DNA of 64,000 nucleotides from Blasia pusilla (taxonomy: Eukaryota). Positions 12,028 to 64,000 of the stretch are shown in pieces. The stretch covers positions 34,782,001 through 34,846,000 of the forward strand of contig CM114271.1 in NCBI GenBank assembly GCA_050084515.1, read 5' to 3'. Made by a program: the position numbers and the translations under genes. The notes beneath the pieces were generated by a model. The model ran no database searches, had not been told where the DNA came from, and saw only the letters and a program-made list of their open reading frames with translations. Each line of letters opens with the position of its first letter. Position 1 is the stretch's first letter.

Positions 12028-12432
12028 TGTAAGAAAATAGAAAGTGACGAAATCACTGAAATCTTTATAAAACTTAGAGATACAAAGTGGCCTAGTCTGT
12101 CCGTGCGCTCACAGAAGAGCTTCAATGGAACCTGAACATGGAGATAACATGACATACGAGAATGCGCTACCGCTACGGCTACCGACTATTTCACTACTCA
12201 GGAAACTAGGGTTTTTACCTATTTTTCTTCATTTTTATTAATAGAAATTTTTTTAGCGGAGATCAGCTTTAGGGTTAGATAATCCTAGTAACGCTACTCC
12301 AGAAACCATCTACGTTATATTCCTATGACTCCTTTGACGTCTAAGTCGGAACCATCAATCTAAGCTTCTCCTCATACAAGGGGGCAGATCAAATTAATGG
12401 TGCTCAGAGAAGTGGATGTTGAGAATCCAACA
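12028..12432 (-). repeat. Copia-1 3' LTR
   Basis: TG...CA ends and alignment to 16116-16549. Confidence 0.93.
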
Positions 12433-16115: not shown

Positions 16116-16549
16116 TGTAAGATAACGAAGAGTGACGAAATCACTGAAACTTTACAAAATTTAGAGATACAAAGTGGCCTAGTCTGTCCGTGTACTCACA
16201 GAAGAGCTTCGATGGAACCTGAACATGGAGATAACTCGACATACGAGAATGCACTACCGCTGCGGCTCCTGACTATTTCACTACTTGGGAAACTAGGGTT
16301 TTTTACCTATTTTTCTTTGTTTCTATTAATAGAAATTTTTTTCGAGGGCTGCGCCCCATCACGGTGCCCCGCACCCTGATGTAATATAGGGTTAGATAAT
16401 CCTAGTAACGCTACTCCATAAACTACCTACGTCATATTACTATGATTCTTTTGACATCTAAGTTGGAACCATCATTCTAGGATTCTCCTCATACAAGGGG
16501 GCCGATTAGATTAATGATGCTCAGAGAAGTGGATGTTGAGAATCCAAAA
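16116..16549 (-). repeat. Copia-1 5' LTR
   Basis: Adjacent to the PBS. The + strand terminal CA is mutated to AA. Confidence 0.93.
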
Positions 16550-37783: not shown

Positions 37784-37917
37784 TGTCGTGCGGATACACA
37801 TCGCTACACAACATCCACCGTTGGTCATATCCACACCACACAACACCAATCTTCCCCACACACGGGTAGATCCATACATATATAGAAATCAACTTATACA
37901 TATATATGGAGATCACA
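37784..37917 (-). repeat. Terminal repeat B2 of the Gypsy-like element
   Basis: Aligns to 38401-38540. Confidence 0.88.
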
Positions 37918-38398
37918 AAAAAAAAATAAAGAGTAGTAAAAATGGCACACTCGGCCTTAAACTCCACTCCTCAATCTACATCAACATATTGAGCCTCGTC
38001 CACCCTTTGCTATCAAGGAATCCAGACGTTAACATCCAGTCCTAACTCACACACACGAGCAAGAATGGTACCCCAACGGCCCAACATGAGAAAAATGGCT
38101 TGGGAAAGCCATTTCCCCCCCTTATATAGGGTTCGGAAGAGCCAAAAGGCTCTTCTTGTAAAAATAACTATCCTCCTGGTAACGTGCGCGCACAGGTTAT
38201 CAAGGATGGATGACCTGCTAAACAAGTCACCTGGTTGTGAAAGACCTCAACAGGAAAGTAATCAGAAATAACGTTCCAAAATGGACCTATCCTCAACCTC
38301 ATCTCACACCTCGGGACAAAGATACACTCAAGACAATCTACTGCCTCCTATGCCCTATCCACGATAGATCTCGGCCTATCGGCTACTCAGATGTGACA
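37918..38398 (-). repeat. Terminal repeat A2 of the Gypsy-like element
   Basis: Aligns to 46322-46803. Confidence 0.9.
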
Positions 38399-38400
38399 GC

Positions 38401-38540
38401 TATCATGCGCATACACATCGCTACACAACATACATTCTTCGTCACATCCACATCCACACCACACAACACCGGTTTTTCCCACGAACTGGTATATCCACAC
38501 ATATACAGAAATCAACTCATACATATATATGGAGATCACA
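38401..38540 (-). repeat. Internal repeat B1 of the Gypsy-like element
   Basis: Aligns to 37784-37917. Preceded on the minus strand by the PPT-like AGGGGGGCAG. Confidence 0.88.
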
Positions 38541-38620
38541 CAACTGCCCCCCTAGCTGGCAGTTGGATCCTCCTAACTCCAGATAGAAAATATCACATCT
38601 CCCTGACATGACCTACTACC

Positions 38621-41540
38621 CTATACACATCTCGGACACATCCATCGTCCCGTGGGAACTACATCAAGAGGGGGGGGGTAGACATGACATATGCCACCCT
38701 TGAGAACAACCATCACATACCAACATGGTGGTTGCACCCCTCGCAGATCCGCACAACATACACCTCAAGCATGTAGGTACCACTACCAAGCTCATATACA
38801 CTGTCTCGTCCACGTTCAGAAGGTGACATTCGTATAGTTGCGCACATGATCCTTCCAAACCATACCATCCCCTCTCTAAACCATGAGGACTCCGGTCGGT
38901 AATACCTTGCGCACACGTAGGATTGTGCACCCTGCAGTGACATCTAGCATCGTGGGTACTGCCTGCTGTAAATACATGTAATCTCTAGAATGAAACCTCC
39001 TAATCCCTGGACGATAGCCTCCTCCACGAATGGTAGAGTACCTCAATGTATCCCTATGTTGAGGAATAGCTAAGTTCTCAAAGGCCATGGGCATAACTCT
39101 ACAAAAAATCTCCGCCCTCTGAGAACACGCTTGTACCCACACATCTGGATCATCAAGATCTAACACCTTTGCCATGTCACGTTGAATAGTTGCAGGTAAA
39201 TATGGCTCTCTCCCAAAGAGCAAAAAGTACCGGGAAAATGACGCCAAGGATGCTTGCTGATTAAAGCAATAATCCATAACCAACCATGGCAATTGTAGAT
39301 CCCACCCTGGTCAGTCAACACCTCCGCTAGTGCACCAAACTGACTAAGCACATGATCTAGAAATGCATAAGCTGTTCCCTTGCTCGTCTTGTCTGGTAGT
39401 GCCATCAACTCTATTCACTTGGAGAAATGGTCCACCATGATCAACACATACCTGTGATGACGCCCCGTCAATGGCAAAGGTCCTGTGAAGTCTAAACTCC
39501 ATCGATAACCTAAACCCATAATTGGCAAAGGATGTAACTACGAAGTGGGAGCATTGAAGGATGCTCACATACCATACATCTAGCCACAAATTGATGTACC
39601 CCAGTATGCATGCCGCGCCACCAATATTAAACTTGAAGTAAGCTGTAAGTATGCTTAACTCCAAAATTCCCTAACTCCTGATAGGCATGTCGTACTACAC
39701 ATGCTCGCTAGGAACGATGAGGTACCACTTGTATCCTACCATCTCCCCATACCCAAAAATTGTGAGTCTCCTCCCACTTGAACCTCTTGGCTCTTAGTAG
39801 GATCCGATCCTACTCCCTAGCACTCACTGTGCTCGCTATGATGCCAGTATGCAAGAACTCCAAAACCTCCACGTCGTCATGGATATCACTACCACGTGTC
39901 GTCTCCTCACTGACCTCCCGATCCAAAGACTCATCATTTGACCCTACCACTAGAGTCACCGCTTGCAGCTAACTTGCCATAGTCAACCAACAAAGATAGG
40001 CAAATGCATGCCAACCAGGCACCATCTCCTCATCACTCTCTCCATGCCATCAAGCTCCTGTGTCGTCTCTCTGAATCGGACATGGGTTACGACTCAACCT
40101 ATCCGCATCTTGGTTCAGCCGACCTGGCCTGCGAACCACCTCAAACTCATACTCTTGTAGTAATAGAGCCCACCTGGCAAGCTTTCTTGTAAGCTTTTCG
40201 GACTCCATCAACCACCTCAACGGATGATGATCAGTGATAAGTGTGAAAGGGTTGCCGAATAGATAGCACAATGAAATGTGCCACAATCCACACAGCAACC
40301 AAGCTCTCTCCCTCGTAGGAGTTGTACTTCGCCTCTGCAATGTTGTTTGATTGGCTCGCGTAAGCCACAATGAATTCCTTCTCCTCGTCATCCCTCTGAG
40401 TAAGCACTCCTCCTAGATCCAACATGCTCCAATTTGTATGTAATTGGAATTAATGGGCGACCCCTAATTAGTCTCTGTAAAATGGGTTAGGATGTCAACC
40501 TGTCCTTGAGCTCCTGAAATGCTCGCTCCTAATCATCTCCCCACAACCAAACCTGGTCAAGTCCCGTTAGCAAGGTCAAAGACTTCGCGATTGCACTAAA
40601 ACCCTTGACATACCATCGATAGAAGTTTGCCAGTCCCAGAAACGCTCAAACCCGACTCACATCTGTAGGGCGTGGAATCTGCGCAATAGCCTCCATCTTT
40701 GTCTACTGAACACCTAACCCACTTGGGTATATGGTGTGTCCCAAGAACTCAATCTGCTCCAGAAAGAATCTGCACTTTCCTGGATGTAACTTCAATCCAT
40801 GTAACTGCAATCTCTGAAGCGCCTCCTCCAAGTGTCGCTCATGCTCCTCAACTGTGGAACTGAAGATAAGAATATCATCTATGTAACACCGTACAAAATT
40901 CAAGCCAGCCAGAATTATATCCATCACTCTATGAAACTCCGCACGCACATTCTTTAACCCAAATGGTAAGAACCGCCATTGATACAAGCAAACTCTCCCA
41001 AACCAATCTATCCCCGAGAATGTTGTCCTCAATGTTATCTTCTCCCTGTCTTCCAATCTGATAGAAAGCTAATGATAGCTGGAGATCTAAAGTATTGAAG
41101 ATCTTTGCATGCCCTACCGCATCAAAGATCTCCTCAGGAGCAAGCATGGCATATCGATCTGACTTCGTCTATCGGTTGAAAGGTCGGTAATCCCCGCATA
41201 TCCGCCTATCCGTCCAATTGCCATTTATATCCTTCTTTGTCGGCATGATTGTGGCAGATGCATACTCCCCATGTAATAACTCCACAAGTCTTGCCTCCAA
41301 CAAGTCCTAACTCCTACTCTAAATCAAGGCTCGCACCATATTAGAATACCTGTAGGGTGGACAAAAGATCGGCGTATCACTAGCCAACTCAATCCATATC
41401 CCGAGACCCTTCAGCGTACCCAAGTCTCTCATACTAAAAGAAAAGCAACTGACATGCCCTCTCAAAAACCTATGAACTCGCCGTTGCTCTCCTCCTATCA
41501 ACTTGAGACCTATCACAGACTCCCAAGTCTCCATTATGAC
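38621..41540 (-). pseudogene. pol region (RT, RNase H, integrase, PHD finger) of the Gypsy-like element
   Basis: ORF fragments 41319-41534, 40703-41056, 40050-40391, 39160-39408, 38876-39292 and 38664-38930. Ends WMCPRCV-stop at 38621. Confidence 0.9.
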
Positions 41541-41849
41541 CTCACTTGGAGAGGACGCAACCTCCGGCTTTGGTTGCTATGTAGCAACCCTAGCCACCTC
41601 CGCAACAACCACTCCACTCTGACCTCCTACACCATGCTCCACATCTGAAAAATGAACATGTGCTGCTCTGGCCGCCTTCACACTCTCTGCTCAAACGACA
41701 TCCTAGGAAGTCCATGGGTGCTTATCTCTCCTCGTCCGTCCCCAGCCAATGCCTATACAGACCTTGTAGGCAATGCTGGAACTCGTGGACATGACGACAT
41801 GGATGATATGCGCATTCGTCTCTACTCACCCATACAAAGGCTAACTATC

Positions 41850-42765
41850 CATGTGAGAAAGTTGAGGCCCATTGCCTGCCCCAACACCTATCTCCATGAT
41901 GCCTCAGTCATACCCGTCACCGCCGTAGTATCCGTAGCGAACCCCATGGTGCGCTCGCGCTCATCCGGATTACCTCATCCCAAATCATGCATGACTCTCC
42001 TTGACAAAAGGCATGAGATATTGGGAAGCTCACCAACGTAGATAAGGTTGCCTTCAACTCCTTCACCGTATTGGCTATCGCCAACGGTGGTCTATCATCC
42101 CGCGTCACCACTTGAGACAGACACCTAGAGCCCAAAATAGCATCCACTGTGAGATGTGGTGCTCTCTGAACTCCATTGTATGCTCAACTCTGTACCTCTT
42201 ATGGTATTAGCTTCGTCCAGCACAATTGTGGATGGTGGGCGTCTGATCCAACTCTCGCTACATCTAACAACACAAAAGGTCCTAACCATAACCTCACCTG
42301 ATGCATACTGGTCATCACACGTGCACGAGTGTCTCCCAACAATGGAACGTTCTCCAAAATGTAGGCCGGAGAACATGTTTGACTCTCTTGCAAGTGTCGC
42401 ACTACTCATAGCATCTCCCAAAATATCCCTGACCTCAGATCCTGCAATCCAACCTCGGCCAGTCGATGAATGACCCTCACATGGCCATCCAGCAATCAGC
42501 AAATGAATGGTGCCAACTCTATCTAGATCCTCTGCCCCCACCAAAGAGATGTCGGCGGGTAGTGTATGTTGATACCCCCATACTGCAAATACTGGCAACA
42601 ACCCAGGATACCTCTGGACCAATCTCGCCAAGTGACGTAATGATACTCGCCGTGCGGTCTTATCTCTCTCCACATAAAGGTACGGATGCACCCGTATGCC
42701 CGCCTGCAACACCACAGCTAATCCGGTGCTAATCCCTCCAAAGAGATCACCACTGGATATCACAC
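41850..42765 (-). pseudogene. Retrotransposon-borne DNA (cytosine-5) methyltransferase domain
   Basis: Motif I DLFGGIS, motif IV AGWPCEGHS, motif VI ILENV, motif VIII-like DAHHPQLCW, motifs IX-X DERERTMGF...VLGQAM, in canonical order across frameshifts. Confidence 0.9.
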
Positions 42766-43269
42766 AATGGGTGTGGTATCCAATGGTGTCAACATCTCCA
42801 CTCCAGAAGCCCGATCGCCACCTGACTCTCGTTGCTCCGGGATAAAGGCATGACTCCACGCCTGCCTCACGAGGTCGTCAACACTCCTCTATAGCTCTCA
42901 AGTCGTACCCTACAATCGCGAAGAGGTCTCATCAACATGGGAATAGACACCTGCCATGGCTTGTGTCTCCATGGGACTATCCGCTACTAGGACATCCTCC
43001 GCATGTGCATTCCCCTTTAACTATCTCTGAATGAGAGGCAGTCAACTCTCCACGTTCACACAACATGATGGCCAGCCGGAATACCTCAGCTGGTCCAACT
43101 CCCAACGTCACCAACTCTATGGCAGAAAATAACTGAGCCTGGCTTACCCTGGTGACCACCTCCAACACTGTGGTTGACACTGACTCCACTCGAGCTCGCA
43201 TAGGAGCTGCCACTCCAACTCCTCGTGACATTGATGCACCTGCCTGACCTGTAGGCAGCACTGGTCGTC

Positions 43270-44984
43270 AAGGCACCATCAATGGTGTGTGAAGTGCCTC
43301 TGACAACATGAACAATTGTGGAACCCTAGCTTGCCGCCCATCGGTCCCCTCTGCTGGGTCAATCTCAACTCCACCTCTCAATGGCTTAGTGCCTCTCGTA
43401 GCATCCCAAGTTACCACCACAGTAGCCTCAACCTGAGCCGCACTACACATAAACCCCATATTAGCAAGATCCTCACCCGGATCAGAGTAAGAGGTAGAAG
43501 CTGGAGCCACACTAGCTACTCTCGGCTCCCTGCCTTCCCTGAGCTGCATCATCGTCATGGTAGCAATCCTCTGCTCCAATTGATTGATGCGCAAGAGAAG
43601 CGCCGTCTCTTGTGCTCCCGCTCCATCTCCTCTGGCAAGTGGTGGTCTTCTACCACCACATCCAACAAAAACTCCTCGACCTCCTCCAGGTTGACCGCCC
43701 CCACGCCCTTGGCCTACCTCTGGACGTGCCTCTCGATACAGGTCAAAACATCTATCCCTAGTGTGACCATATCTGTGGCAATAGTCACACTCGTACTGTG
43801 GTGGGGCCATCCTCTATGGCTCCTGAGCAATCGGAGGCGCTCGTGGTCCTCTCCCATGCTATGGGCAGTCTTTCTACCTATGGGCCCCTCCATACGTCCA
43901 ACAAGACAACATCGGTCCCTGCTGGGCAACATATGTAGGTCGGGTCGTTGCCTCATAGGCTCACGGTACCCGCCCTGCTCTTTGGGCACACTGGCCCGCT
44001 CCCGTTGTCGTGGTGCTCGCTGTGGCAAGTGTGGGGTTACCGTCGCTCGTGGACCCGTCAACTCTCAAGAAAATCCAGTGGTCACTACCTCCTCATCACT
44101 CATGTTGAGCTCAATACGCTCAGACAAATCAAAGACCACCTTCAATGTGAGCTTCGCCATGTGAATCAGCACCGCATTTGGACTTTCCTCCGGAGTTCTC
44201 GGTCCAGAACCCTGTACCAGTACTAGATTGACTACGCCTCAATCACTCCATAAGTAACAATGATCACCCTCCTCATGCGCGTGAATGCCTCTCTTAGACT
44301 CTTACCCAATCATTGCTTAAAATCTTGTAGACTCTTCAGCTTGCTGGTACGTAGGCCCTAGTAGCTCTTTCCCAACTGTCAGAAGAACTTCACTAAGGGA
44401 CTGAAGCTGGGTGGCCCTCTACCACCAAAGCTCTCTGCCATATTTCTTGTCTCACTGCCCTCCTCTCCATCTAGTCTCTAGGCTCATGGTGTGGGTCTCT
44501 CTCCTCTCACAATCCCATCATATGCCTCACAACCACTAGTGGACACATAGCCTCGAGCCCAATATATCCTCCACGCATCAATCTCTTCTAAATATAGTGA
44601 TCAAAGCTCCATGTAATCATTCATCGGAGGATGCTCCAAGTGTTGGAACAACCCCTTCCATGCCATGAAAGGGTTGAACCGTGTCGGGGTCCATATCTCC
44701 TCGAAATCGCATCATGTGTCGAACTCCTGGATGAAGTCATCTAAGTTGATGGTGCCTACTGCACCTGAGAAATGACGCACGCCTTGGTGGCCCATATCGT
44801 CAATCTCCTCCCAATTGACACTACCTCCGTCTGCGATCTAGTCACCAGATTCGCTATCCACTGATGAAGATCCAGCCACAGATGGAAGTCGAGTTAGCTC
44901 CTCACTCGTAACCCTTCGATATCTCACTTCACCCCGTGTCACACCACTACTACTGCTCGCACTACCCGATTCTTCCGAACCCAT
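43270..44984 (-). pseudogene. gag of the Gypsy-like element
   Basis: LDDFIQEFDT...FMAWKGLFQHLE capsid-like segment, CCHC knuckle and RGG-rich tail. Many stops. Confidence 0.75.
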
Positions 44985-46321
44985 GAAGAATGCCGTAATG
45001 AAAACCCTGTCTCACCCGCTCAAGCACTCAGACTCACCACGAGTCTCCCATACTCCTCACTAGCTCACCTAGGCTAATGGTAATCTTGTGACGACACATA
45101 TGTCCTCATGCACACTTAACACTCGGGCTCACCATAAGCCTCCCAAATAACTCACCTAAACTGCTGACACTCTCGGGTCATACATGTGACCCCTACTCGG
45201 CAACCGACATATATCCACAGACATGCTACACATGCATGGAGACTACACTCGTCACCATCGCTACACCCATCTAACCTCAACAACTACCCAATACCCAGCA
45301 CTCTCAATCACATAAGATAAGCGTGGGAAAAGGGACCCAAAAGGGTAACCTGATCACGCCCTCCAACCTACGACACCGTCAACACTCACTCCTCCATGTG
45401 GTACGGCAACCTCCGCAAAATGATACTCTCCTCGACACGCGTCAAACCTTTCATCATTGGATGCAAACTATTGTCGGCATCGACACGTGTGTCTCCATCA
45501 CAACCCTCGCAAATCCCAATCAGTGAAGAACTAATGAGTCAACCCCCAATTGACTCGTAATAGCTACCAAACTCCCATCGCAAATCCCACCATGCTCGCG
45601 CAATACCAAGTCTCAAAATGCTCTCCTACTACGTAACTCAACGCAGTCACATCCGCCCCCTCAAACTGGTAGCCTGAACCAACCGCGTCTGAATCCTTGC
45701 CCTACCATGTCCGCTATTGCCTCTACCACGTCGGCCTGACCTTACTACGTCCTTTCGACTGCCCACGTCGGCCCTGCTCGACTACGTCAACCTTGACCCC
45801 GACCACATCCGGTTTGCCTACCACGTCCATATTTTGACTACGTTGGGCACCTACCACGTCGTGAGGAAGACGCCGACCACGTCCGGAAAAGGAGGAGGGG
45901 GGAATGGCCCTTGGCTTGTGCCCCAAATCAGACTTTTGACTCCCGATGTACTCTGTCATGCCCTGCCCTCTTCCGTCTTTGACCTAACCCTAGCCCTAGG
46001 CAGCTACGCCCTAGCCTGGCCGCCTTTACTTGACAATCCCTGACAGCTACAAGTCAGGTTTCAAATTCCTCTTCTCCTTCTCCCGTTACTCTCGTCGATA
46101 CACTTGCCGCCCCACTTTGCGCTATGCCAAGCCGTTGTCCCCCGTCAACTTGCACTAGAGAAATTTGAGAAAAACATAGAGTGCTTCCACGCACAGCCTT
46201 TTGAACAAAAAAATGACAACAAAACGTCAACTAGAGTCTCCAGGGGCTCCCGGTCGAGGCAACTCGCTTGCCTACCTGCAACCAACGAATTCCCACCAGC
46301 CCCCTGACATCTTTCTCATGT

Positions 46322-46803
46322 AAAAATAAATAGTAGTAAAAATGGCACACCCGGCCTAAAACTCCACTCCTCAATCTACATCGGTATATCGGGCCTCGTC
46401 CACCCTGTGCTATCAAGGAATCCAGACGCTAGCACCCAGTCCTAACTCACACACACGAGCAAGAATGGTACTCCAACGGCCCAACATGAGAATGATAGCT
46501 TGGGAAAACCATCTTCCTCCCTTATATAGGGTTGGAAAGAGCCAAAAGGCTCTTCTCCTAAAAATAGCTATCCTCGTGGTAACCTGCCCGTACAAGTTAC
46601 CAAGGGTGGATGACTTGCTCAACAAGTCATCCGGTTTTGAAAGACCTCAACATGAAATTTGTCAGAAACGATGGTCGTGACACAACTGAAACCTATCATC
46701 AACCTCATCCGACACCTCGGGACAAAGTTACACTCAAGATTGTCTGCTGGATCCTATGTCTTATCCATGATAGATCTCGGCCTATCGCTACTCAGATGTG
46801 ACA
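46322..46803 (-). repeat. 5' terminal repeat A1 of the Gypsy-like element
   Basis: Aligns to 37918-38398 only. No B segment is adjacent. Confidence 0.9.
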
Positions 46804-48239
46804 GAGTTCATGAAATGGATGAAAGTTTTCTCTTGGGTTATAAGTCCTTGGATAAGGTGGAAGGTACGATAATTCAAAGGTTTGACATAAATTTAAATAT
46901 TTTGCTTATTAATATTAGAAGTATTTGCATATATTCGAACATCTTGAACTTATACTTCATATAAGGAGTTCTGATTAATTGTTTTATAAAATAATTAATA
47001 TCCAAGAAGTGTATTTTGAAATTTTGTTTCCAAATTATTGTTTGATTTTCCCTATACTAAGGTAAGTTTTCCATAGAAACGAGGGATTTTAAATCAATTT
47101 TAATTTTTTATTAAAAAAAACTATTTCCTGAAAATTTTTGTAGCCCTTCTATTTATTTTTTCATTTTTTTAATTTAAATTAATATTTCAGCATTTAGGAA
47201 AAAACCTATACTTGTAATTTCAGGTTAATTTTGGAAGTGAAAATACAGATGACTTTAGAACTACGTCATTTAATGTATTTTTCAAGTTTTTTTTGTCAAG
47301 GATTTTTTAAGAAAATTTTGAGACAAACTTGGGATCAAAATGATTTTTAACTAATTGAGAAACGTTGGAGACCACTATCAAATCTGTCCATGAATTTATG
47401 ATTTCTTTTTAGGTTTATCCTATACTAAGCAAAAATAAGAATGGGTAAGGTCGTAATAATAGTTAGTTAATTTTAATTAACTCAAATTCAAACATCTTCC
47501 CCATGAAATCTTCTAGAGTTTTTTTCATTTTTTTAATCTTTCCTCATTTGAGAAATTATTTTTTGTAGGTGAATGCAAACATAATTTAAAGTTTAGTTTT
47601 GAGGGGAAATCAAATTTTCTTTTGGGAAAAAATGAAAAGGATAATAGGATAGTAATGGGAGAAGAATTATTCTTCGAAATAAAGGAAGACATATTATTTC
47701 TATAAGATTTTAACTTTCAAGTTAGATTGGGGGGAAATTTAATGCCTCTTTTGGGAAATAAATTCATCAAAATAAGTGGTTTTCTTTTATTTATTGAAAG
47801 ATGGGGATTGGGTAAAAGGATGAATTTTTTATAAAATTTTAATAAAGGAAAATTATGTTTTAATTAAATTATAAAAGAAAATAATGTTTGAATTACGTTT
47901 AGTGAAAAATATTGCATGGGATAAAATTAGAAAGGGATTTGGGTGCAAATGGAAACAAAATTTACTTATTAATTCATATTTTATTTAATACTATAATAAG
48001 TGAATATAAATATTACTAAATTATTAAAAAAAATTAGATAAATAAATAATTTGTACCTTAATTCATATGTAATGGAAAGGGAAATTGAATTTTAATGGAA
48101 AAGAAATAGATTTGGTTCGAATTTTATAGAAGGATGAATTTACGTACGGGACTAGGATATCATTTATATTTGAATTGAGGAGTGTAATTACTTACAAGAA
48201 TGAAATGTAATAATTCTTCTAAGATTTTTTAGAAGACCG

Positions 48240-50577
48240 CAAATGGTCCCCAAGTTACATCTATCACTCTTGCAAATTATCAACCCAAATGAAGTTGTGA
48301 CCACAATCTAAAAAATGACCTTCTTGGACCCAAAGCACTAAACCTTGAATGAAAAAAAAAAGGTCTTTTAATTTTTCATCTTGTCCAACTTTCCCATCTT
48401 AAGCTGAAATTTAGCCCATATAGTCTCCAAGCTGCATCTAGAACTCTTGTTAGGTTTCAAGCAAAATCGAGTTGAGACCACAAGCTCAAAAATTGGTAAG
48501 TCCTTTTTTGACCCAAACCATGAGACCTTCTATCAAAACAAGGTTTTTTTTCATTTTTCATCTTGTCCAAATTTCCCATATTCAGCTGAAATTTGGCCCA
48601 TATGGTCCCCAAGGTGCATGTTCCACTCTTGCTAAGTTTCAAGAAAAATGGAGTTGTGACCAAAACCTCAAAAAATAACTCCTTTTTGGACCCGAACCAT
48701 CAAACCTTGAATGAAAATAGGGTTTTTTTATTTTTCATCTTGTCCAACTTTCCCATCTTGGGTTGAGATTTGGCCCACATAGTCCCCAAGGTGCATGTTC
48801 CTTTCTTGCCAAGTTTCAAGCAAAATGGATTTTTGCGTAAAAACCTCAAAAATTAATAACCCCTTGTTGGACTCGAACCATCAAACCTTGAATGAAAATA
48901 GGGTTTTTAAATTTTTCATCTTGTCCAACTCTCCCATCTTGAACTTAAATTTGGCCCACATTGGCATCAAGGTGCGTGTTCCACTCTTGCAAAGTTTCAC
49001 CCACACTGGAGTTGTCAGCAAAACCTCAAAATTTGGTAAGTCCTTTTTGGACCCGAATCATGACCTTGAATGAAAATGTGGTTTTCTAATTTTTCGTTTT
49101 GTCCAACTCTCCCATCTTAAACTGAAATTGGGCGCACATTGTCCTCAAGATGCATGTTCTACTCTTCCAAAGTTTCACCCATAGTGGAATTTTGAGCAAA
49201 ACCTCAAAAATTGGTAAGTCCTTTTTGGACCCGAACCATCTTACCTTCTCTCAAAATAAGAATTTTTTCATTTTTCATCTTGTCCAACTCTCCCATCTTG
49301 AGCTGAGATTTGGTCCACATGGTCTCCAATGTGCATCTAGCACTCTTCCCAAGTTTCATGAAAAAAAGAGTTGGGACCACAAGCTCAAAAATTGGTAAGT
49401 CCTTTTTGGACCCGAGCCATGAGACCTTCAATCAAATTAAGATTTTCTCATTTTTCATCTTGTCCAAATTTCCCATCTTAAGCTGAAATTTGGCCCAGAT
49501 GGTCTCCAAGGTGCATCTAGCACTCTTGCAAAGTTTCAAGAAAAATTGAGTTGGGACCACAAGCTCAAAAATTGGTAAGTTATTTTTGGATCCGAACCAC
49601 GAGACCTTCTATCAAAATAAGGTTTTTTTTATTTTTCATCTTGTCCGAATTTTCCATCTTGAGCTGAAATTTGGCCCACATGGTTGCCAAGGTGCATGTT
49701 CCACGCTTATCAAGTTTCAAGAAAAATAAAGTTTTGAGCAGAACCTCCAAAATTAATAACTTCTTTTTGGACCCAAACCATTACATCTTCTATCAAAATA
49801 AGGCTTTTGCATTTTTCATCTTGTTTGGTTTTCCTATCTTGAGCTGAAATTTAGTCCACATAGTCTCCAAGATGCATCTAACACTTTTACCAAGTTTCAA
49901 GAAAAATGGAGTTGGGACCACAAGCTCAAAAATGGGTAAGTCCTTTTTGGACCCTAACCATGAGACCTTCAATCAAAAGAAGGTTTCTTTATTTTTCCTC
50001 TTGTCCAACTTTCCCATCTTGAGCTGAAATTTGGCCCACATGGTCCCCAAGGTGCATCTTCCACTCTAACCAAGTTTCAAGTAAAATGGAGTTGTAAGAA
50101 AAACATCAAAAATTAATAACTTCTTTTTGGACCCGAACCATTAGACCTTAAATGAAAATAGGGTTTTTAATTTTTCATCTTGTCCAAATCTCCCACCTTA
50201 ATTTTGCCCGAACCATGAGACCTTTTATCAAAATAAGGTTTTTTCATTTTTCATCTTGTCCAACTTTCCCATCTTGAGTTGAAATTTGGCCCACATGGTC
50301 TCCAAGGTGCATGTTCCACTCTAGCCAAGTTTCAAGAAAAATTGAGTTGTGAGCAAAACCTCAAAAATTAATAACTCCTTTTTGGACCCAAACCTTTAGA
50401 GCTTTTATCACAATAAGATTTTTTCATTTTTTATCTTGTCTAAATTTTCCATCTGGAGTTGACATTTGGTCCCCATGGTCTCCAAGGTTTATCTAGCACT
50501 TTTGCCAAGTTTCAAGCAAAATAGAGTTGGGACCACTAGCTCAAAAATTGTTAAGTCCTTTCTGGACCCGAACCATT
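48240..50577. repeat. Tandem array of a ~180-bp unit, about 13 diverged copies
   Basis: ATTTTTCATCTTGTCCAA-like anchor recurs near 48371, 48553, 48730, 48911, 49089, 49270, 49451, 49631, 49811, 49991, 50170, 50246 (shortened unit) and 50426. Confidence 0.93.
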
Positions 50578-52790
50578 TGTCGTGGGCATACACATCGCTG
50601 TCATCGAACACACACACAAACATACACGATCCCATGCTAACTCATGGCATCCATACATAGAGGCCAGAAGTACCAAAATATCTCCAATGAAGTAAGATCC
50701 AATCTCTCTCTACATCATCTCACACCATAGCTCTCAAAGGTGTGCACTCTCTCTCATGTCAAACCAAACCCACTCTCCTAATGAGAGGCTTGGGTTACAC
50801 TCACAAGGCAAGGGACCATAGCTCCGTGGCCTTATGCCAAGAGGTTCAACAAAGAGAGAATGAGCTCTCAAGCTCTCTCTCTTGGAGGTATATCCCCTTC
50901 CCTCTCCCAAGCCCTCTCAACGGTAACCTATACTCGCAGGTCACCTCCTTGGCTCTTGACCTGCTGCTGCTCAAGGGCCACTTCCCAAAGTGGAAAGTCA
51001 ACTATCCCCAACATGGAAACTTACCCGAAATAGTAAGTTTCTCATTATGGCTCCAAATGAGCCGAAACGAAGGGGAAACCTGCTCTCTCAGGTTTCTCGG
51101 GGCCTCAATAGGTCATCCTCGACCTCCTAGGCATGTCCTACACTACTCATGCAGACGCTCTGCTAGATCCTATCGATCTATCCTAACAGTCGTGACAGTT
51201 GTCTTGCGCATACACATCGCTACACAACATACATTGTTGTCATCGAACACACACATAAACACACACGATCCCATGCTAACTCATGGCATCCATACGTAGA
51301 GGCAAGAAGTACCAAAATATCTCCAATCAGACGTGCCATATGCCAACCTCTCGAACATCCATCACAGACTAGCATCGTGGCCGTACCACGAGCAGAACCA
51401 CACAACATAGAACGCAAGCCCGCAGGAACTACTGCTGAGCTCGGATCTACTGTACCATCAATGTTAGGAAGGTGACATAGTGCACAATTACGCACATGGT
51501 CCTTCCATACCATACCATTGCGTCCCTCCAGCAAGAGAACACCGGATGGCAAAACGTCACGAACTCTCAGGATAGTGCGCCCTGCAGTCACATCCAACAT
51601 CGTCGGTGCCATCTGCTGCAAGTAGACATAATCTCCCTGATGAAACCTCTGGATAGTTGGTCGATAACCACCACCCCGAATAGTCGCATACCTCAACGTA
51701 TCCCGATGTTGCCCAATCGCCAAGTTCTTGAACGCCATGGGCATCACTCTCCGGAACAACTCAGCCCTCTGAGAGCATGCTCGCATCCATACATCTGGGT
51801 CATCAAGGTCCAACACCTCACCAGCATCTTAACAAATGGCCGTAGGTAAATCTTGCTCTGGGCCATAAAGTAGCAAGTACGGTGAAAAAGACGCTAGGGA
51901 TGAGTGCCTATTGAATCTATATCCCATTGCCAACCACAGAAACTGGAGGTCCCAATCTCCTAGGTAACCTCTCTGCAAGTCATACTTGCGGAAACCCCTC
52001 TTCACCGTCTGCACAACTCTCTCCGCTAATCCATCCACCTCGAGATAATCTCGCGAAGTCGTGCGGTGGTCGATCAGCGCCTGATCACACAAGGCCTGGA
52101 ACTCACCGCGAAACTTAGTACCCTGGTGTGTCAACACCTCAGCCGGTGCGCCATAATGACTCAACACTCTGTCAAGGAAGGCATAAGCTACTCCCTCACT
52201 CGCTCTGTCAGGCAATGCAACCAACTCGATCCACTTCGAGAAGTGCTCGACCATCACCAACACATAACGACTGTGACGCTCAGTTAAAGGCAAAGGTCCT
52301 GCAAAATCTAAACTCCATCTATACCCTAAGTCCATGATCCGTAATGGATGCAACTGTGGAGTCGGAGCATTGAAGGATGCTCGGACCCGATCACACACCA
52401 TGCACCTGGCAAAAAACTGCTGAACGTCAGTCTGCATGCCTCGCCACCAATACTGAATCTGGAGCAAGCTGTATATCCGCTTCATCCCAAAGTGACCCAA
52501 CTCCTCGTGGGCATGTTGCACTAGTCGTGCTCTCTGTGAAGGATGCGGCACTACGCGTACTCTACCATCCTCCCAAACCCTCAAAACATGTGTCCCCTCC
52601 CAATGGAACCGTCGGCCTGGCTGCCAGAGGATCGATCCACTCTCTAGCACCCACGGTGCTCGCAACGCTGCCAGTACGAAGGTACTCCTAGACTACTCCA
52701 TCATCATGAATATCTCGGCCACCTGTCGTCTCCTCACTGGCCTCGGGATCCAAGGACTCTCCACTAGACCTCGCCATCGAAGTCTCCATA
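50578..52790 (-). mobile_element. Second, related Gypsy-like element, 3' part only: integrase, partial PHD and B1-A2-B2 terminal repeats
   Basis: IN zinc finger HEELGH..CMVC, WSLDFAGPL, GLAER and PHD start MLCGS..VCDGCSRGWH. Repeat 50578-50688 ~ 51200-51327 with junction GTGACA-GT-TGTC at 51192-51203. Abuts the 180-bp array. Confidence 0.9.
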
Positions 52791-52799
52791 CTCTGGCTC

Positions 52800-53487
52800 T
52801 CATATCAGAACTAGCATTAGAACTCATTGTGTTATGTCCGCAACTACGAGTCATATAGTTATGTCTACATCACTTGTAGGGCCTTCTACTCTAGTCATGT
52901 GTCACTACTAGGTGAGTGACTTAACGTGACTACATGAGTACATTAAGGTATGGGAAAACATTGAAATGACTACAAGAGTTGCTAGCTACAACTAAATGAA
53001 AAAATTTAATGACTGGTGGAGTCATGACTATGCTCGCTAAGTGGATCCCTCACCCATGGAGTACACATGTCACATTGTCCTTGGATATTGTGTACTTTAA
53101 CATGACTAAACATGACTAATGTAGTCATTGGTGGTAACTAGAAAAATACCCTATATATGACTACATGAGTTGTCTTCCATAGTCCATGTCACACCAATTA
53201 GCCCATATCATCTGTGACATGTCACACCGATTGCTCCACGTCATACGTATACGTGTCATTATTCCACGTCATCTAAGTGACGTGTCAGTCATGGCCTCAT
53301 GACTACGCCTCCTAGTCATATACCAGCGTCCACCTAAGTTGACCATCCTAGTTAGCCTAGTCGTCTGACAAATATGACTTGGCTTTTGTGTCTAAAATAG
53401 GCGTGAGTCATTGTTAATTGTGATATGTAAAATATGACTCATATGAATCATATAAACTAGTCATAAAACCAAGGATTTCTTCTAGTG
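52800..53487. mobile_element. CACTA transposon terminal fragment, terminus at 53487
   Basis: GGATTTCTTCTAGTG is the reverse complement of CACTAGAAGAAATCC. Many ATGACT/AGTCAT subterminal motifs occur in both orientations. Confidence 0.6.
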
Positions 53488-54832
53488 CTACAACAACCCT
53501 ACTCCAACCTCTCAAGCCGTCCATCACCCTACCCCTAGACATTTAATACCCCACTAAAATTATCGGGCCCCCCACAATCCCCTTGCCCGCACCCTAGCCG
53601 GCACGTGTGCTCCAAGGGTCGCAACAAGCCCATGCACTCGCTAGGAAGCCCGAGTCCTTGCCCGCGGGCGAGCTCCAAGGCTCGCAACGAGCCCGCGCCC
53701 TAGGACTGCATGCGGGCTACAAAACTTGCCAACACGAAAAACTGATCACCAAAGTCTGCTTGCGACGTACCAAAGTAACTTCCTAAGGGAGGCCATGATT
53801 CACACATGTTCATCTAGGGTGGGAAGTGGGAATGTGCACACACCTGCTGTAAAGTAAATTAGGCGGTTCTTACTAGTTTTTATGATGCCCGGAGTGCATT
53901 TGAGATGGAAAACACGATTTCTTTGTCAAAGTGGCGAAAGAACCGTTGGGGATTGCCGGTTTGGCATGTAGGTTGCCTGCACGGGCCCGGCTGGGTTTTC
54001 CTCGGCAACTCAGTTGCCGACTTCCGGCGCCCAGGAGTCGATACCATCGACTCGTGGACCCCGTCCCACCCCACGATGAGTCCTCCGCGGTGACCGCCAG
54101 TTTAGGTCGTCCAACACATCGAAGGAGCTGGCATGATTCGAATAGATATTCGAACAGCGGACGAACGGGATCCAATCCTCGCTACCGGGCATTCCTGCGC
54201 CCACGTACCTACCCAGTTCACGAGCGGTGCAGTACCCGACCCCAAATCGCAAAAGGTACAGGTCCAAGTTAAGTTGCTGACACCCAAGATTAAATAAATG
54301 ATGGCGTGAATTCTGCTTTCACTCAGAGCACGCATCGGATCCTTGGGCTTACCATCGATCATGAGCGGGCCCTGAGTGGCTGGCTGGCAATCACTGTCTT
54401 CACGAATGGCGGCCTCGTGCTCGCGCAATCTGGGACGCTCGCTTCCAGGGCCTGCACTTACGAGCACATTTGTGCATGATTACACTATTTGAAGTTATGG
54501 TGCCCGTCCGAGTCCACCTTGTCTAAGTCGCCGGTCAGGACTGTCCAGAGCATAGAATTCCCACGCGCCTCCAAGCATCGAGTATCGGAACGTTAAACTT
54601 CTAGATCAGATCATCAGACGAGGATCTGTCATGGCATGCATACATGCGGAGAAACTGGCGGGGTATAATAAATAAACTTGTAGAAGTCAATGTTCCATGA
54701 CCACTGCTCACTCCTAAATATGGGGCAGGCGGTCAAAACTGCATTGTGCCGCACTGCAGCAGCAATGCCTGTGCACAACATGTGGCGGCGTGGCCTGAAC
54801 GTGTGTTCAACCTCCTCGAGACACATGTACTT

Positions 54833-54985
54833 GCGCACCGCATACACACAATAACTGAATTGCTGAATCAGAAACATCGTTGCCAGTTCCGTATGTTCGT
54901 TTACGCGCGCACCGCATACACACAATAACTGAATTGCTGAATCAGAAACATCGTTGCCAGTTCCGTATGTTCGTTTACGCGCGCA
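54833..54985. repeat. Perfect 74-bp tandem duplication
   Basis: Two identical 74-nt units bounded by GCGCA microhomology. Confidence 0.95.
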
Positions 54986-57900
54986 GGTGGCAGATATATA
55001 TCCAGTGAAATGGACATGAATCGGGAAGGGGACGAAGCTAGAACTGAAACAGGAATGCGAGGAAAAGCAGGCAGGCCTCTTATGTTGAAAATATCAAACG
55101 TCCTGATCGCCTGGACTTCAGGGTTAAATGTTCACAGATCGATCTGCGCGTGAGCAGCCTGTTCAGATGAGGCCGTCTGGGGGTAGGCCTCTTAGCAGTA
55201 GTTAATTAGGTAATGTACGCCACGTTCTTACTCGGCGAGCCGGCGCGCGCGATTCACGACCTTCTAATATCGATCTTTGGCACTACTCTAAGAAGAACGT
55301 TTGATTAATAAAATCGAAATATATGATCCTTGGGCATGGCTACAAACACTGAGCGATTCACGATGTATGTACGAGAACGATCGATATATGGATTTAGATA
55401 CCAACTAGTGTAGTTATGAAACTCGGCTTAGCAAAGCCTCACCTGTGGGAGTTCATTCTCGGGATCCGACGCATGAAGTCAGAACAAAGACTCTAGCTTC
55501 AGATGATTAAAACCAGCTCGGAATCAGTAATAAGATATTCTATCTCTCCATGATTCAGTCATGAGTCGATGCCTAGTTATACACGTTAGCAAGTTTGAAA
55601 GTCTCGTGGCTACAGATTGGAGGATCTGTCCTGAACACGAGGTGAATTTCGAGGCCCTGTACATTCCAGGTCCAAAGGTCGAGAGGTTTTGACTTGGACG
55701 GCCAGGCCCCAATGAGCGTTGCAGGTTTCCTGCTCTAGAGCTTTGTTCCATGATCGATATCGACCTGCGCATGCGTCGACATGCTGTGGAAATTCCCTCC
55801 TGAGATCCCCACGGGTAACGTCTACTATGTGCTCAACATGGCCTACATCGCATCGATCTACAAAAGCCTTCACGCGCCATGATATCTCCGTATTTTCGAC
55901 TTACAGACACAAGCCACGGAACAAGGTAGGTCACCGAGCTCGCACCAACAGTGGTAAACTTCTTCACCTTCGATTCGCAACCATGGTGACGTACGTACGC
56001 GCAAGAGGCGCTGATATCCATGAACATGCCTATTCAGCTCACCGTACATTACCGTCTGGCAAAAAGAGAATTTCGGAACTTGTAAATAATATTGGCCAAC
56101 ATCCAGGAACCTGAAAAGAGCCAGGATCGTGACGATTGATAGCAATAACACCTTCTCAAGCGAAACAAAACGTAACCTCCAAACAGCGGTTTACACGTAC
56201 ATAAAATGCAAGAATTCTTTTCGAGGACAGCACAGTCCAACAGCACATATATTTTCTATCGTAATTGTCGTTATCCAACATGAGCGGTGCCGGAGAACAG
56301 AAGAATTAGAGTTAACTTTGTTTGCAACGTCTCGCAACCCAAGCGCAGCAGGTTGGCAGAGCTCTAGAGCATTGAACCTTGGCAGTTCTTAAGTCATGAT
56401 CGAAAAATCTCAGGAACGTGGACGACTCCGGGCATTAAATCTCGCTGAGGAAAAGGGACATGACGACATCTACGAGTGTTTTCTCGTGAGATCTGTTGAA
56501 ATTTGATACGAGTCTCAGTTTGCCCGTACAATATAAGCATTTTCTCCTATTTTGATTACGACATTTCTCGAGTGTATTGCATATCTTCCCTTCAATCCGT
56601 CATCGTCCATAAATGACACTCATCGCATCATATATTTATACTTCACGATGAGATTCTTCCCATGTATGTAGAAATAGCATTCAGGATCATGACCGACTAA
56701 ATGAATTCATCGACCATTGACATCGGGGATCACCATTATGGACATTAAGATCGCCATGTCCAGTCTGGCCTTAATGTCCACAATTGCAATCAGAAAGTTG
56801 TAATTTAATCAAGGATAGATGTATCATTATTATAGCTGGTAGTGTCTATCAATCCATAACTCTAGACACATGTAGAGTTTTTTTCTAACTGGTAAATTTT
56901 CTTATGATTTCGATTGATATCGATGAACTACCATTAGTCTTGCAGCCAGTCTAGATCCTACATTTCAAGCTGGGTAATGGTTAGTGTCGGCCTCACGTAC
57001 TAAAAGATCTTACTCGATATTAAGTCTTTATAGAACCTTACTTGTAGGTCGTAGCTCATTTATCCATGCAGTAGTAGCATGACCTCGATTGAATGAATGC
57101 CCCATGATATGCCTGTACACACCATTCCTCTTGACAATCATCTGTCAGGGCAGACCTAGGCTGCTGACATGGCAACCTCGATCTCACTCATGATCTTCAA
57201 CCTGTGGATAAAATGTGTACAATGTTTGTCATATACGTTTGAATATGAACTGACATGTATATGAATTCAAAAGAATAAAACACACGAATTGTTTCGATAC
57301 TTACGTGAAAGCTCACAACTTGCAACTAAAAACTGGCTCGAAGATGGTGAATTTCAGGACTTCAAATTGACAATTGATCAATATTGTTTACATAGATCGT
57401 GAACGATTACAGTGAGTACATGATCATGACCATCGCAGCTCTAGATAGCTAATCACCATTCATGCTGTGAACTAGGTCCCAGATCTACATATGATATATA
57501 GAACTACCTGTAGGTAGACCTACATATATGTACATGTAAAGATCTATTAATGCATTGGTTGGAACTGTGGTGGTGGACACAGCCGGCACGAGCGGCCGAA
57601 TCTCGCCTCAAGAGAACCTGCTCTTGAAAAAGTAGCCACCACCTGATCAGCCACGTATCCCGGCCGCCAGCCTGGAGTCCCACGAGGTGCATGGCTGGAC
57701 TATCCCGGGAATGTTTGAGCTAGATTCCCGAGGATCTGCATGCTCCAGCACTTGTTCGGATTTTCATGACCGGCATTCACTTGTGGCCTTGGTGGTCCCC
57801 CTTGAATAGGGAACGCTTATGCACAAGGATCCGGAACGAGCTCCTGCTGGGCTCCAGCCGGCCGTGGACGTACAGTACTTAGCTAGAGCTTTCTGAAATA

Positions 57901-58898
57901 TGCTCGTCAGAAAGATCACCATGGATCCTATCCTGGCACCGATCAAGATCGAGAGATCTACACTTGATCAATTATACAGCACTTCGCGAAATCGGGACAC
58001 ACCTAGAGCTCTCTGTCTCTCTCTGTCACAGGCATACATGGTATCGATCTAGATTTACAGCCACACTGCCTCGGATCACGTACTTCCCGAGGGAAGAATC
58101 GATCCAAAAATTAAATTCTCTGTCTGGACAGCGTATGACTAATTTATCGTCCAGATCCGTTGCAGGCAGCAGCTGATCAGTGTACTAGATCGATGAGAGA
58201 ACTCGCAAGCGAGACCATGCAGCTGGTCCCTGGAGCTTGAACTGCATGTACATATAATTAAGGACCTTATATCTACAGAAATATATAGATCTCCAGGGTG
58301 CAGCACAAGCTAGCCTTATCATGGACGACATCGGAAAAGAAGAGAAAACACTATTACAGCTATCTAGGGACAAAACAAACTTGTCCTTGCAGTCATCGTA
58401 AGACATTACTTGCAAGCAATTAGCAAGCGACTAACCAACAAGTACGCACGCAGATGAGAAGAGTCTGAATCATGGCGATAACTAGTGCGAGCTAGCGCTC
58501 GAGTCAATCGGTGGCGCAGCTACAATACTTAACAGAATCTCAAGTGATCTAGAGTGACTTTACGTAATATATATTAAATGTCACGGTTCTGTCAGGAATC
58601 GCAAAATCAGGACTAACTGTGTAGAATTATTCCTCGCTCGTCCGCACAAGAGCGCGCTACACTTGAAAAATCCGCTGACCTTTACCTTCAAATTCGAACA
58701 TGTGTACTCGATCGCGAGTACTTAGTCTCGAACGACCAAAAGGACAGATGAATTGCGGAAGTTGCATCTTGAAATGAACATGAGTCCGGATCCATCAAAA
58801 TTTGGCACAAGTTTGATAATTCAACCCTTAGACCCGCTGAAACAGTGGTGGCCAGCCATCAGGTCTCGAAATTCTCGATACAATTCGGGTCAGTTCAA

Positions 58899-59628
58899 CT
58901 ATCTTGGACTGATGGACATATCATTGACATGTCGAGAGCTTCTCGGCGGAAATTGTCGCTCGGGTGAGTCGTCCATGGGATACTTTGGGGTGTTGGTCCC
59001 TGACAAGCTCTTCCTCCGCTGTTGGCTCACCATCAGCCTCTCTAGTGTTTGCTGGTGCTGCTGTTGCACAGTGTCGATATCGACCATATCGTCTCCGAAG
59101 CTTGGCGCCGGGCTGTGGATTGCGGACGGACCGGTTCCCGCCTGGTGCAAAGGTGGACGCTGATTCTGGGTGGTCGACGAGTTCACACGGTTTTCGTAAT
59201 CATCGTAGTTCATAGATCCAGAATGATTGGAACTCAGCGAGTTCACTGAGAACCTTGACGGATCGAAACCGAAGTCGCGATCTACGTCGTAGTTCCTGGA
59301 ATTGTTGTTGGAATTTCTCGCGTCGTAACTTTCATAGCGATGTTCTGTTCTGACCGTTCGTTGCAACTGGTAGTCAGAGTGCACCGTGCTCCTGGTCAAT
59401 GGTCCGGAGTTGTCGCTCATTGGGGTTGGTGATCCACGATCGTCACGCTGCAGCACGCCACTGTTTTGTCTTGAACTCTCCCGGGATCCGTCAGTAACCA
59501 TGCTTACAGTCTCGCTGATGGATCCTTCGGCGTTATAGATGGATCCTTCGGTGTTGTAAGACAGCGGCGTGAGCTCCCCTGGATAGTGTTGTTCGCCTGG
59601 AGGCATTCTCGCCATGCCTCCTGCAGCT
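58899..59628 (-). CDS. Last coding exon of the uncharacterised gene
   Basis: ttgaacag| acceptor, long open frame (ORF 58899-59636), TAG stop. Confidence 0.75.
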
Positions 59629-62359: not shown

Positions 62360-64000
62360 ATTCGAATGATCCTTGGGCCCTGGAATTTTGGCTGAAATGA
62401 AATTATGAGCCTGCAATAGGCGTAGCTTGAGTCTAGCTCCTCGGAACCCCGTGATGTCCAGCTCTGGTAACGACTGCAAAGTACATGACCACGTCCTTGT
62501 CAGTAACGAGTACTCTCCAAGTAACGTTCTGGTTTCCTAGAGATCCAACTTGGTCGAAGACGTTGGACCCGATCAATCGATCGAGTCCATGTCGACCAAC
62601 ACGTTTATTACCGGAGGCGATCTAGATTCTAGGTTGACCAAAACAACTATTAGACTACTATAATTTGGAAGGAACGGAAGTAGAGTAGCTGTGGCTTCAG
62701 TCGTGGGTGGAATGTTCTTCCTGAAATCCTCCCCCCCCCCACTCGCCTTCAGTGCTTCAAAACAGGTACTATAAAAGATCATGAGGAATTTCTCAAATAC
62801 GTCTCACCCTATGGATGCTTTCAATTAAGTAGGTAGCTAGTGCTACTTCACTTTGTAGGCCTGCAGAGTATGTAGAGGGCTAGTACGTTTGACACATGGT
62901 ATAAGTTCGGAAACACTTGCGAAGGATCTGCATCATAAATAACGAGGCTACCGTGCCTGGTCTGACATTTCCACATGCCTGCGGTCAAAGTCTCAAAAAT
63001 CGATTTCCCTCGTCAGACAGTTGCGAAGAGAAATGAAAGAATTACCTGGAGGGCCACAGGTGAGCGCACTAGCGCTAAAGATCTGATCCAACTCTCGAGA
63101 GCGGTGTTGTTCCAAGGCTCAACTCAGGCACATTTGCACTACTAGCTTCGCGCTTGAACTCCCCCGCGTAAATACCCCGCTGCCTTACGATATCTTCCCC
63201 AAAGGGGTCCTCACAGACCTGCTACCTCAGAATTTTCCCGCATCAGATCCTTCGCCAACATCTGCTTCAAGACATCCATGCCATGAAGGCCTAAGACTGA
63301 CCTGCCGTCCCCCAGCAAGACGTATACTTCGCCCGGCCGGCCCACGGCAACCTAAGCTGAACACGGATCCTCCGATCTGCATTGACCTGCAGTCGCTTGC
63401 ATGGCAGTTACAAGCCAGTGCGGCCTTTCTTAAGTAGCCTCCAGAGATGCTGCAATCTTTCCTGCCGATGGATATCCGCGGTCTAGATCTCGACGAGTAA
63501 AAGCAGCGGGGAGCAAAATGCTTAAATGGCAGAGCATGGGAGATCTAGAATTTATCTCGAGATCAAAACTCCCCGAACTTGCTTGCGAGATCTTGATCTC
63601 AGATTTTGTCCGGGCTCATACGCTGAACAGCTGTCCGCCTGCTACAGGCGACTGTGGAGTGGGCCCCGCTCCCGTTTGACTGGCTTGCAGCATTACAGTG
63701 ATCTACCTGATGTAGACCACATTTCGGGGTCAACATAAACTAATGAAATGTCTGCAGTGGCAGATCTGCGCTCGCTGTTCAAGAGATTTGGCGGAGCGCA
63801 TATTTCCTATGATGCGGAGTTGAGACAATTGTCTCAACTCCGCATCGTCTCGCGCATGCCCAGCATCTTCAGCCCATCGTGCTGGAGCCGGATCTCGGAG
63901 CGCAACCATGACCAGTTTTCTTCAATTCTTTTACCCAGGGCAGCTTCGAAAGGAGGACCGGTGCGACCACGAAGCCGATCACCAGCCCTTCTGTTGCGCC

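Follow-up and report, generated by a model that had tools for sequence, protein, structure and literature searches.

A 5'-truncated Gypsy-DNMT3 element in a Blasia pusilla satellite ends in DIRS-like split repeats, possibly explained by permuted long terminal repeats

The closest described systems to the elements studied here are the KnitGypsy-Dnmt3 retrotransposons of Klebsormidium. According to the Fig. 4c legend of de Mendoza et al. 2018 (PMC5890265), they combine DIRS-like repeats with Gypsy domains, and the paper draws DIRS repeats as A-coding region-B-A-B. The passage on these elements gives no replication model, primer-binding site (PBS), primer tract or junction palindrome, and the supplements may hold more. 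A 2026 preprint names "streptophytes (Gypsy-DNMT3)" (bioRxiv 10.64898/2026.05.21.726589). Our literature searches, with the 2018 supplements outside their scope, returned no liverwort copies of the Gypsy-DNMT3 split-repeat layout and no replication model for it, and the chlamyvir and REM1 literature adds nothing on termini. Here we analyse a window of 64,000 nt from Blasia pusilla that contains two such elements, with the working names el1 (the first, complete element) and el2 (the second, fragmentary element). The element orientation is the minus strand for both, and coordinates are window positions.

As in KnitGypsy-Dnmt3, the pol of the elements here is of the Ty3/gypsy type, which comprises reverse transcriptase (RT), RNase H and a DDE integrase, and the polyprotein probably also includes a C5 methyltransferase related to Dnmt3. 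The KnitGypsy-Dnmt3 repeats are drawn A-coding-B-A-B, as in el1. In contrast to Klebsormidium, the host is a land plant, as indicated by the homologue search, in which the closest proteins are from liverworts. Both copies in the window have decayed, and nothing of the DNMT region is present in el2. On balance we lean towards reading el2 as the 3' end of a 5'-truncated Gypsy-DNMT3 element in a satellite, its terminal layout being explained by replication with a permuted long terminal repeat (LTR).

The el2 terminus contains two copies of a repeat B around a segment A. In element orientation, pol is followed by the internal copy B1 (51200..51327, 128 nt, of which 17 nt are not in B2), a 2-nt spacer AC (51198..51199) that makes GACA-AC-TGTC between the B1 end and the A2 start, the segment A2 (50689..51197, 509 nt, beginning TGTCACG) and the terminal copy B2 (50578..50688, 111 nt), whose outer end (...CACGACA) adjoins a ~180-bp satellite. 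As the coding sequence is on the minus strand, this B1-A2-B2 block is the 3' end of the element. In a global alignment, B1 and B2 agree at 105 positions and differ at 6 (94.6%), with a single indel of 17 nt. Self-BLAST of the whole window finds a 97-nt core of the repeat with E = 5e-36, which excludes a chance repeat. A first-pass annotation of this DNA had placed the two copies at the same positions around a 509-bp segment, and re-deriving the repeat by alignment returns its coordinates and length exactly to the base. The segment ends in GTGACA on the plus strand, as had been described, with the 2-nt spacer after it.

The A2 segment of el2 is family-specific. It had been described as not visibly alignable to the A segment of el1, and indeed BLASTN finds nothing past the first ~10 nt and MAFFT returns noise only. 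The claim that the two families have a short stretch of B in common holds as well, with its proposed length of ~30 nt slightly short: ~40 nt of the B end are common. In the self-BLAST of the window, the el1 and el2 termini have one block of 52 nt in common, with 90% identity (38393-38444 vs 51192-51242). Besides these ~40 nt it takes in the 2-nt spacer and the first ~10 nt of A, and so crosses the B/A junction. The bodies of B show weak homology between the families (21/300 shuffles). A derivation of the el2 B start from the el1 3' untranslated region was considered and is not supported (158/300 shuffles). The B-end motif of el2 (...TGTATGTTGTGT..., 51222-51236(-)) resembles the C-M-L-C codons at the start of its own PHD finger (51400-51414(-)), a likeness that may be chance or a trace of the origin of B.

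The complete layout is seen in el1, which covers 46803-37784 on the minus strand (9020 bp) in the order A1-internal-B1-nn-A2-B2. Its 5' repeat A1 consists of A only (46321..46803) and carries a TATATAA box 31 nt upstream of a 13-mer that pairs with a candidate self-priming PBS, located directly after A1 (46308..46320). The coding region (38620..44786) has frameshifts and stops and contains gag-like, DNMT-like, RT, RNase H, integrase and PHD sequences. It is followed by a G-run tract GCTAGGGGGGCAG, a candidate plus-strand primer (38544..38556) that adjoins the start of B1. The repeats at the 3' end are B1 (38401..38543), A2 (37921..38398) and B2 (37784..37920), with a spacer GC between B1 and A2 (38400-38399); all these features are on the minus strand. 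The termini are TGTCAC...CGACA, flanked by the 4-bp target duplication ACTC (46807-46804 and 37783-37780). A1 and A2 are 87.0% identical and B1 and B2 84.7%, a difference that is not significant (Fisher p = 0.48). The A pair and the B pair were therefore probably identical at the same time, and both probably come from one event. The feature of A only at the 5' end is seen here in el1 alone, and in the published cartoon.

The Pfam domains RVT_1, RT_RNaseH and PHD are found on el1. Using the relatives as tblastn queries, gag-like sequence is detected to 44786, and 42859-41741 is homologous to parts of DNMT. The ORF at 42128-42877(-) matches the relative P0016 by BLASTP (E = 6e-23), the GWPC motif included, and P0016 itself carries PF00145 and matches DNMT3A chains. 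No Pfam DNMT hit was obtained on this ORF, which is recognised by homology only. The methyltransferase to which the first-pass annotation refers is probably present in el1, as a decayed C5-DNMT remnant.

The pol remnant of el2 (about 51328..52790, minus strand) consists of an integrase (H2C2 and rve) and a PHD finger of which only the first half is left, according to Pfam, translations and tblastx/tblastn. The ORF 51832-52692(-) contains Integrase_H2C2 (1.8e-15) and rve (2.2e-11). It is closed by the single in-frame stop of the el2 pol (51829-51831), past which the ORF 51223-51828(-) runs on into the PHD finger. This finger ends after ...GWHMA(R)L, while in the relatives it continues for ~20 codons to ...CPxC, and the break coincides exactly with the first base of B1. 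The element itself is dead: the deletion in pol begins in the middle of the PHD finger and stops exactly where B1 begins, and it has also removed the primer tract. At the other side, homology between el2 and el1 ends near 52790-52800. Upstream in el2, tblastx and tblastn detect no RT, DNMT or gag. No further el2 coding sequence was found in 52800-64000 by BLASTN, tblastx or tblastn with all 120 fetched relatives, and BLASTN finds no el2 A1 or other A copy there. With the homology stopping near 52790 and nothing beyond, el2 is a 5'-truncated or interrupted element fragment.

A protein search with the el2 integrase gave 141 longer homologues, among which proteins of the liverworts Calypogeia fissa and Riccia sorocarpa rank first (73-81% identity), followed by proteins from Sphagnum, Klebsormidium nitens and chlorophytes. 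The usual architecture of the relatives is RT, RNase H, H2C2, rve and PHD, and several carry PF00145. Among the Klebsormidium proteins, P0033 carries PF00145 and is 51% identical to the el2 integrase (E 3.8e-75); P0040 and P0067 also match it. Judged by homology search and domain content, el2 belongs to the Ty3/gypsy lineage with PHD finger and DNMT, i.e. Gypsy-DNMT3. The Ty3/gypsy pol order RT - RNase H - DDE integrase is present in el1, where RVT_1 and RT_RNaseH are followed by integrase homology. TG...CA termini with a target duplication in the 4-6 bp range are found in el1 (n = 1), and el2 retains the 3' end only. The two identical direct LTRs of Ty3/gypsy elements are absent: el1 has A alone at its 5' end and B-nn-A-B at its 3' end. 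The A-coding-B-A-B repeats of the Gypsy-DNMT3 lineage are complete in el1, and their 3' part is present in el2 and in an independent contig (L002, below). A Pfam scan of 142 of the 158 window ORFs of at least 75 aa found no tyrosine recombinase; the other 16 lie in repeats, in the satellite or antisense to the el2 pol. The scan of three ORFs of a second contig (L001) and one of L002 found none either. The integration enzyme of the lineage is a DDE integrase rather than a tyrosine recombinase.

Four independent contigs, L001-L004, were obtained from a search of genome contigs with the integrase alignment. They are filed under bacterial metagenome-assembled genomes and are evidently eukaryotic. 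L001 (9285 bp) has ends (1-127 and 9159-9285) that are identical over 127 nt and lie inside ORF1. It is a circularly closed unit of 9158 bp with one B-nn-A, either an assembly collapse or a real one-LTR circle. Its ORFs are intact and encode gag and an aspartyl protease along with PF00145 (6.8e-12), and after these RT, RNase H, integrase and PHD; Pfam detects RVT_1, RNase H, H2C2, rve and PHD in ORF2. L002 (2905 bp) is 87% identical to L001 and shows the order integrase-PHD, GCTAGGGGGGGCA, B1 (2311-2416), GC, A (2419-2778), B2 (2779-2884). B1 and B2 of this contig show 100% identity, and the 21 nt after B2 are unrelated flank. L002 is a third independent B1-A2-B2 end. The integrases of L001 and L002 are 66% identical to that of el2, which indicates a further family of the lineage and not the family of el2 itself. 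L003 and L004 are more distant, with integrases 40-43% identical to the el2 integrase.

The junction of B end, two nucleotides and A start is the element's own two termini abutted. It reads GACA-AC-TGTC in el2, GATA-GC-TGTC in el1 and GACA-GC-TGTC in L001 and L002, and L003 and L004 have the perfect palindrome CGTGACA-GC-TGTCACG. No other non-coding block is as well conserved between el1 and el2 as this B-nn-A junction. A G-run tract, GCTAGGGGGG(G)CA, adjoins the first base of B1 in el1, L001 and L002, and TTAGGGGGG is located upstream of the junction in L003 and L004.

In Tf1-type self-priming, the PBS directly follows the LTR and can pair with the ~11-13 nt at the 5' end of the transcript. 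The 13 nt after A1 of el1 are complementary to A, with 12/13 positions pairing in the A2 copy and 11/13 in the A1 copy; among random 13-mers from the window, 4/20000 reach 12/13 anywhere in el1 A2. In L001, 7415-7427 is complementary at 13/13 positions to 7239-7251, which lies 29 nt after TATAG, and 1/19144 random 13-mers are as good. The start of this PBS aligns without gaps with the A end of L002, as set by the A2|B2 junction of L002. A blind inverted-repeat search recovers the pairs of el1 and L001, the former being the sole inverted repeat in 46200-46830, and finds a 16-nt pair with 94% identity in L003. The position-specific 13-mer test took the place of an RNAduplex energy test, in which the best site for the 25-mer after A1 against all of A1 was upstream of the TATA box and not significant (17/500 shuffles). 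Reading by eye, without a tRNA scan, we found no TGG-type (tRNA) PBS directly after A1 or B1 of el1. Self-priming has been predicted for some plant chromoviruses, and self-priming Ty3/gypsy elements include the Tf1/sushi group and the Tcn1 clade in non-seed plants (PMC6317226). As in those elements, the PBS of el1 and L001 would stand directly after the LTR and pair with the transcript start, which is here a prediction from the TATA motif only. By analogy, the complementarity after A may thus be a signature of Tf1-type self-priming. However, Tf1/sushi-type elements have ordinary paired LTRs, and their LTR ends are the integration ends. A perfect 12-nt hairpin with a 4-nt loop is also present in L001 (7228-7255), over the predicted transcript start and the self-primer region.

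With the primer tract before B and the PBS after A, the LTR as seen by the reverse transcriptase would be B-nn-A, and the expected complementary DNA (cDNA) would be [B-nn-A]-PBS-internal-PPT-[B-nn-A], where PPT denotes the polypurine tract. Reverse transcription would then be canonical, with Tf1-like self-priming; U3 would extend over B, the spacer and an upstream portion of A, with the remainder of A as R-U5. The genomic copy, from A start to B end, would be this cDNA shifted by one B. Joining of the cDNA ends, in a two-LTR circle or a tandem LTR, would create a junction of A end and B start. The integrase would cut both strands after the CA of one internal palindrome, leaving a 2-nt stagger and recessed CA-3'OH ends, and insertion of the opened molecule would duplicate 4 bp of the target. 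If the 5' LTR is the one opened, the product would be exactly A-internal-B-nn-A-B, a copy that could again give terminally redundant RNA from the promoter in A1. The end joining and the opening of the circle at the palindrome are a further, more speculative step, proposed as the simplest route. The A2|B2 junction of el1 has the exact length expected from an A end joined to a B start (2 of the 10 nt around the join are mismatched), and this length fits the circle-joint route. The el2 deletion also fits, as it ends exactly at the B1 start, the site expected for a plus-strand discontinuity.

More specifically, the integration ends may have moved inside the LTR, so that a DDE integrase acts on a permanent GACA-nn-TGTC in a circular or tandem-LTR intermediate and the provirus is a circular permutation of the cDNA; we propose this tentatively and with some doubt. 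Abutted inverted ends, 2-3 bp apart, are substrates of DDE enzymes in IS3/IS30 circles and in retroviral two-LTR circle junctions. Those junctions are transient and located at the circle joint, whereas the abutted ends here are permanent within the LTR, and their use is a reading from their placement.

A third relic in the window (23633-23850 (+)) contains a decayed junction of B end, TT and A start that is related to el2 (74% over 186 nt). A gag fragment lies 1.2 kb downstream (24883-24975 (+)), matching P0106 aa 81-111 with E = 5e-7. An end-to-end match of the relic with the el2 terminus was rejected, as only the B end, the two nucleotides and the first ~185 nt of A align. The relic may be the other predicted permutation, the link between the junction and the gag pieces being unproven.

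Several observations weigh against the permuted-LTR explanation. The circle, the linear cDNA ends, the transcript start and the poly(A) site are all inferred from genomic sequence alone. A two-LTR circle would have two identical palindromes, and the choice between them is unexplained by the data here. The target duplication comes from one element and is 4 bp long (chance about 1/256). The primer tract is only a run of 6-7 G, not a long polypurine tract; el2 lacks it, and the PBS region of el2 lies in the missing 5' part. L001, being collapsed or circular, cannot show an A-only 5' end. A search of both L003 and L004 found no second B, and the blind search found no inverted repeat in L004 at the thresholds used. 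In the third relic, the order (B-end-like, A, then the gag fragment) is not the standard layout, and its likeness to a B end is modest (7-27/1000 shuffles; 74/2908 random 60-mers).

The best surviving alternative, which we regard as unlikely, is that reverse transcription alone rebuilds the layout without a circle, following the logic of DIRS elements, in which the internal B1-A2 is a template for the untranscribed ends. The RNA would run from within A1 to within B2, the first strand would start beside the B1 end, and it would be transferred by B homology to the 3' end and later by A homology to regain the upstream A. The layout is that of the DIRS order, whose ends are proposed to be regenerated from their internal copy (PMC7192593). 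The strong conservation of the B1-nn-A2 junction relative to other non-coding sequence also agrees with such a template, and the AT/T-richness of the A end and the B start is a frequent feature of plant poly(A) regions. However, this scheme needs a primer site at the A2 start, where none was found and no tRNA-like TGG is present, as well as three homology-guided transfers and two RNAs. It also leaves unexplained why a 12-13-nt self-complementary site stands exactly at the A end and a G-run exactly at the B start, the two placements from which the permuted LTR is read.

An ordinary LTR element, with A or A+B as its LTR and an accidental extra B, is highly improbable and largely refuted. The extra copy could be a local duplication or a nested solo LTR, or could result from unequal recombination within a tandem array or from an assembly error, and the decay of both el1 and el2, the el2 deletion ending at B1 and the many rearranged and nested elements of the window are in its favour. 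However, el1, el2 and L002 have the same breakpoints, the B copies of L002 showing 100% identity with flank after them, and the same layout is reported for Klebsormidium. The ACTC duplication of el1 brackets A1...B2 as one unit, the A and B pairs of el1 are equally diverged, and the copies in the window differ from each other, which rules out assembly collapse. The argument of the first-pass annotation, that the same layout in diverged families speaks for a conserved mechanism over an accident, is therefore supported by el1, el2 and L002 as well as by the published KnitGypsy-Dnmt3.

A true DIRS-order element (PAT-like or Ngaro) with a tyrosine recombinase and its own methyltransferase would match the split direct repeats A1...B1-A2-B2 (PMC4157794) and the methyltransferase in el1, but we reject this identity on domain content as next to impossible, given that the scanned ORFs of the window, L001 and L002 contain no tyrosine recombinase, that an H2C2 and rve integrase is present, that el1 has TG...CA termini and the 4-bp ACTC duplication (n = 1), and that the methyltransferase is C5-DNMT3-like, not Dam-like. 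The likeness to the DIRS order (PAT-like, Ngaro, VIPER) is in the arrangement A1-internal-B1-A2-B2, with an internal copy of both termini and a methyltransferase in some members. Those elements differ in having a tyrosine recombinase, no target duplication and a Dam-like adenine methylase, whereas the features here are a DDE integrase and a C5-DNMT together with TG...CA ends and a 4-bp duplication.

The split-repeat layout in an element with a DDE integrase is already in print, only as a legend remark, and the land-plant copies add to it. The placements of the PBS, the primer tract and the abutted termini, together with the permuted-LTR reading, appear to be new. In the textbook view, LTR retrotransposons integrate linear cDNA by the LTR tips, and a retroviral-type integrase in an element with DIRS-type repeats challenges that view. 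If the permuted-LTR reading is true, DIRS-type split direct repeats would be the footprint of a two-LTR circle integrated at a site within the LTR, and such a layout would have arisen with two unrelated enzymes, a tyrosine recombinase and a DDE integrase. The lineage is a natural experiment on keeping terminal information through an RNA copy and is relevant to the question whether circular or internal substrates are open to DDE integrases. It carries its own DNA methyltransferase and PHD reader and is found in green algae as well as in land plants. Its copies will be annotated wrongly by standard LTR finders, as elements with unequal LTRs.

The satellite beside el2 is an array of ~180-bp units at 48240..50577, broken by the el2 insertion. 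It consists of at least 13 monomers with a spacing of 177-182 nt and one of 255, and a monomer is interrupted by the B2 end of el2. Self-BLAST found no continuation of the satellite beyond el2 elsewhere in the window. On the other side, the 11 kb next to the el2 break (52800-64000) has a GC content of 43-50%; no Pfam domain was found in its ORFs of at least 75 aa, and the stretch has no match to the lineage. Short repeated motifs (tagtcatg-like) are located next to the break, and a 74-bp tandem duplication is found at 54828-54975. Further on, a perfect 36-bp palindrome (63811-63846) is centred on GAGACA-AT-TGTCTC; it has a junction-like form with no related coding sequence nearby.

In the rest of the window, two related Ty1/copia copies, 84-90% identical, occupy 12027-22744 (-) and share LTR-like pieces at 12027-12430, 16115-16547 and 22550-22744. 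An insert of ~177 bp (19026-19202) is present in the second copy, and its part 19026-19174 is 82% identical to the gag start of el1 (44617-44765). Two palindromes are located in the genic region, at 7024-7090 (64 nt, 94-100%) and 11915-11953 (39 nt, 97%). Host genes are represented by four exons of an alkaline/neutral invertase (GH100) at 3131-6713 (+) and a GNAT acetyltransferase ORF at 9746-10288 (+), which show that the window is genic plant DNA in its AT-rich left part.

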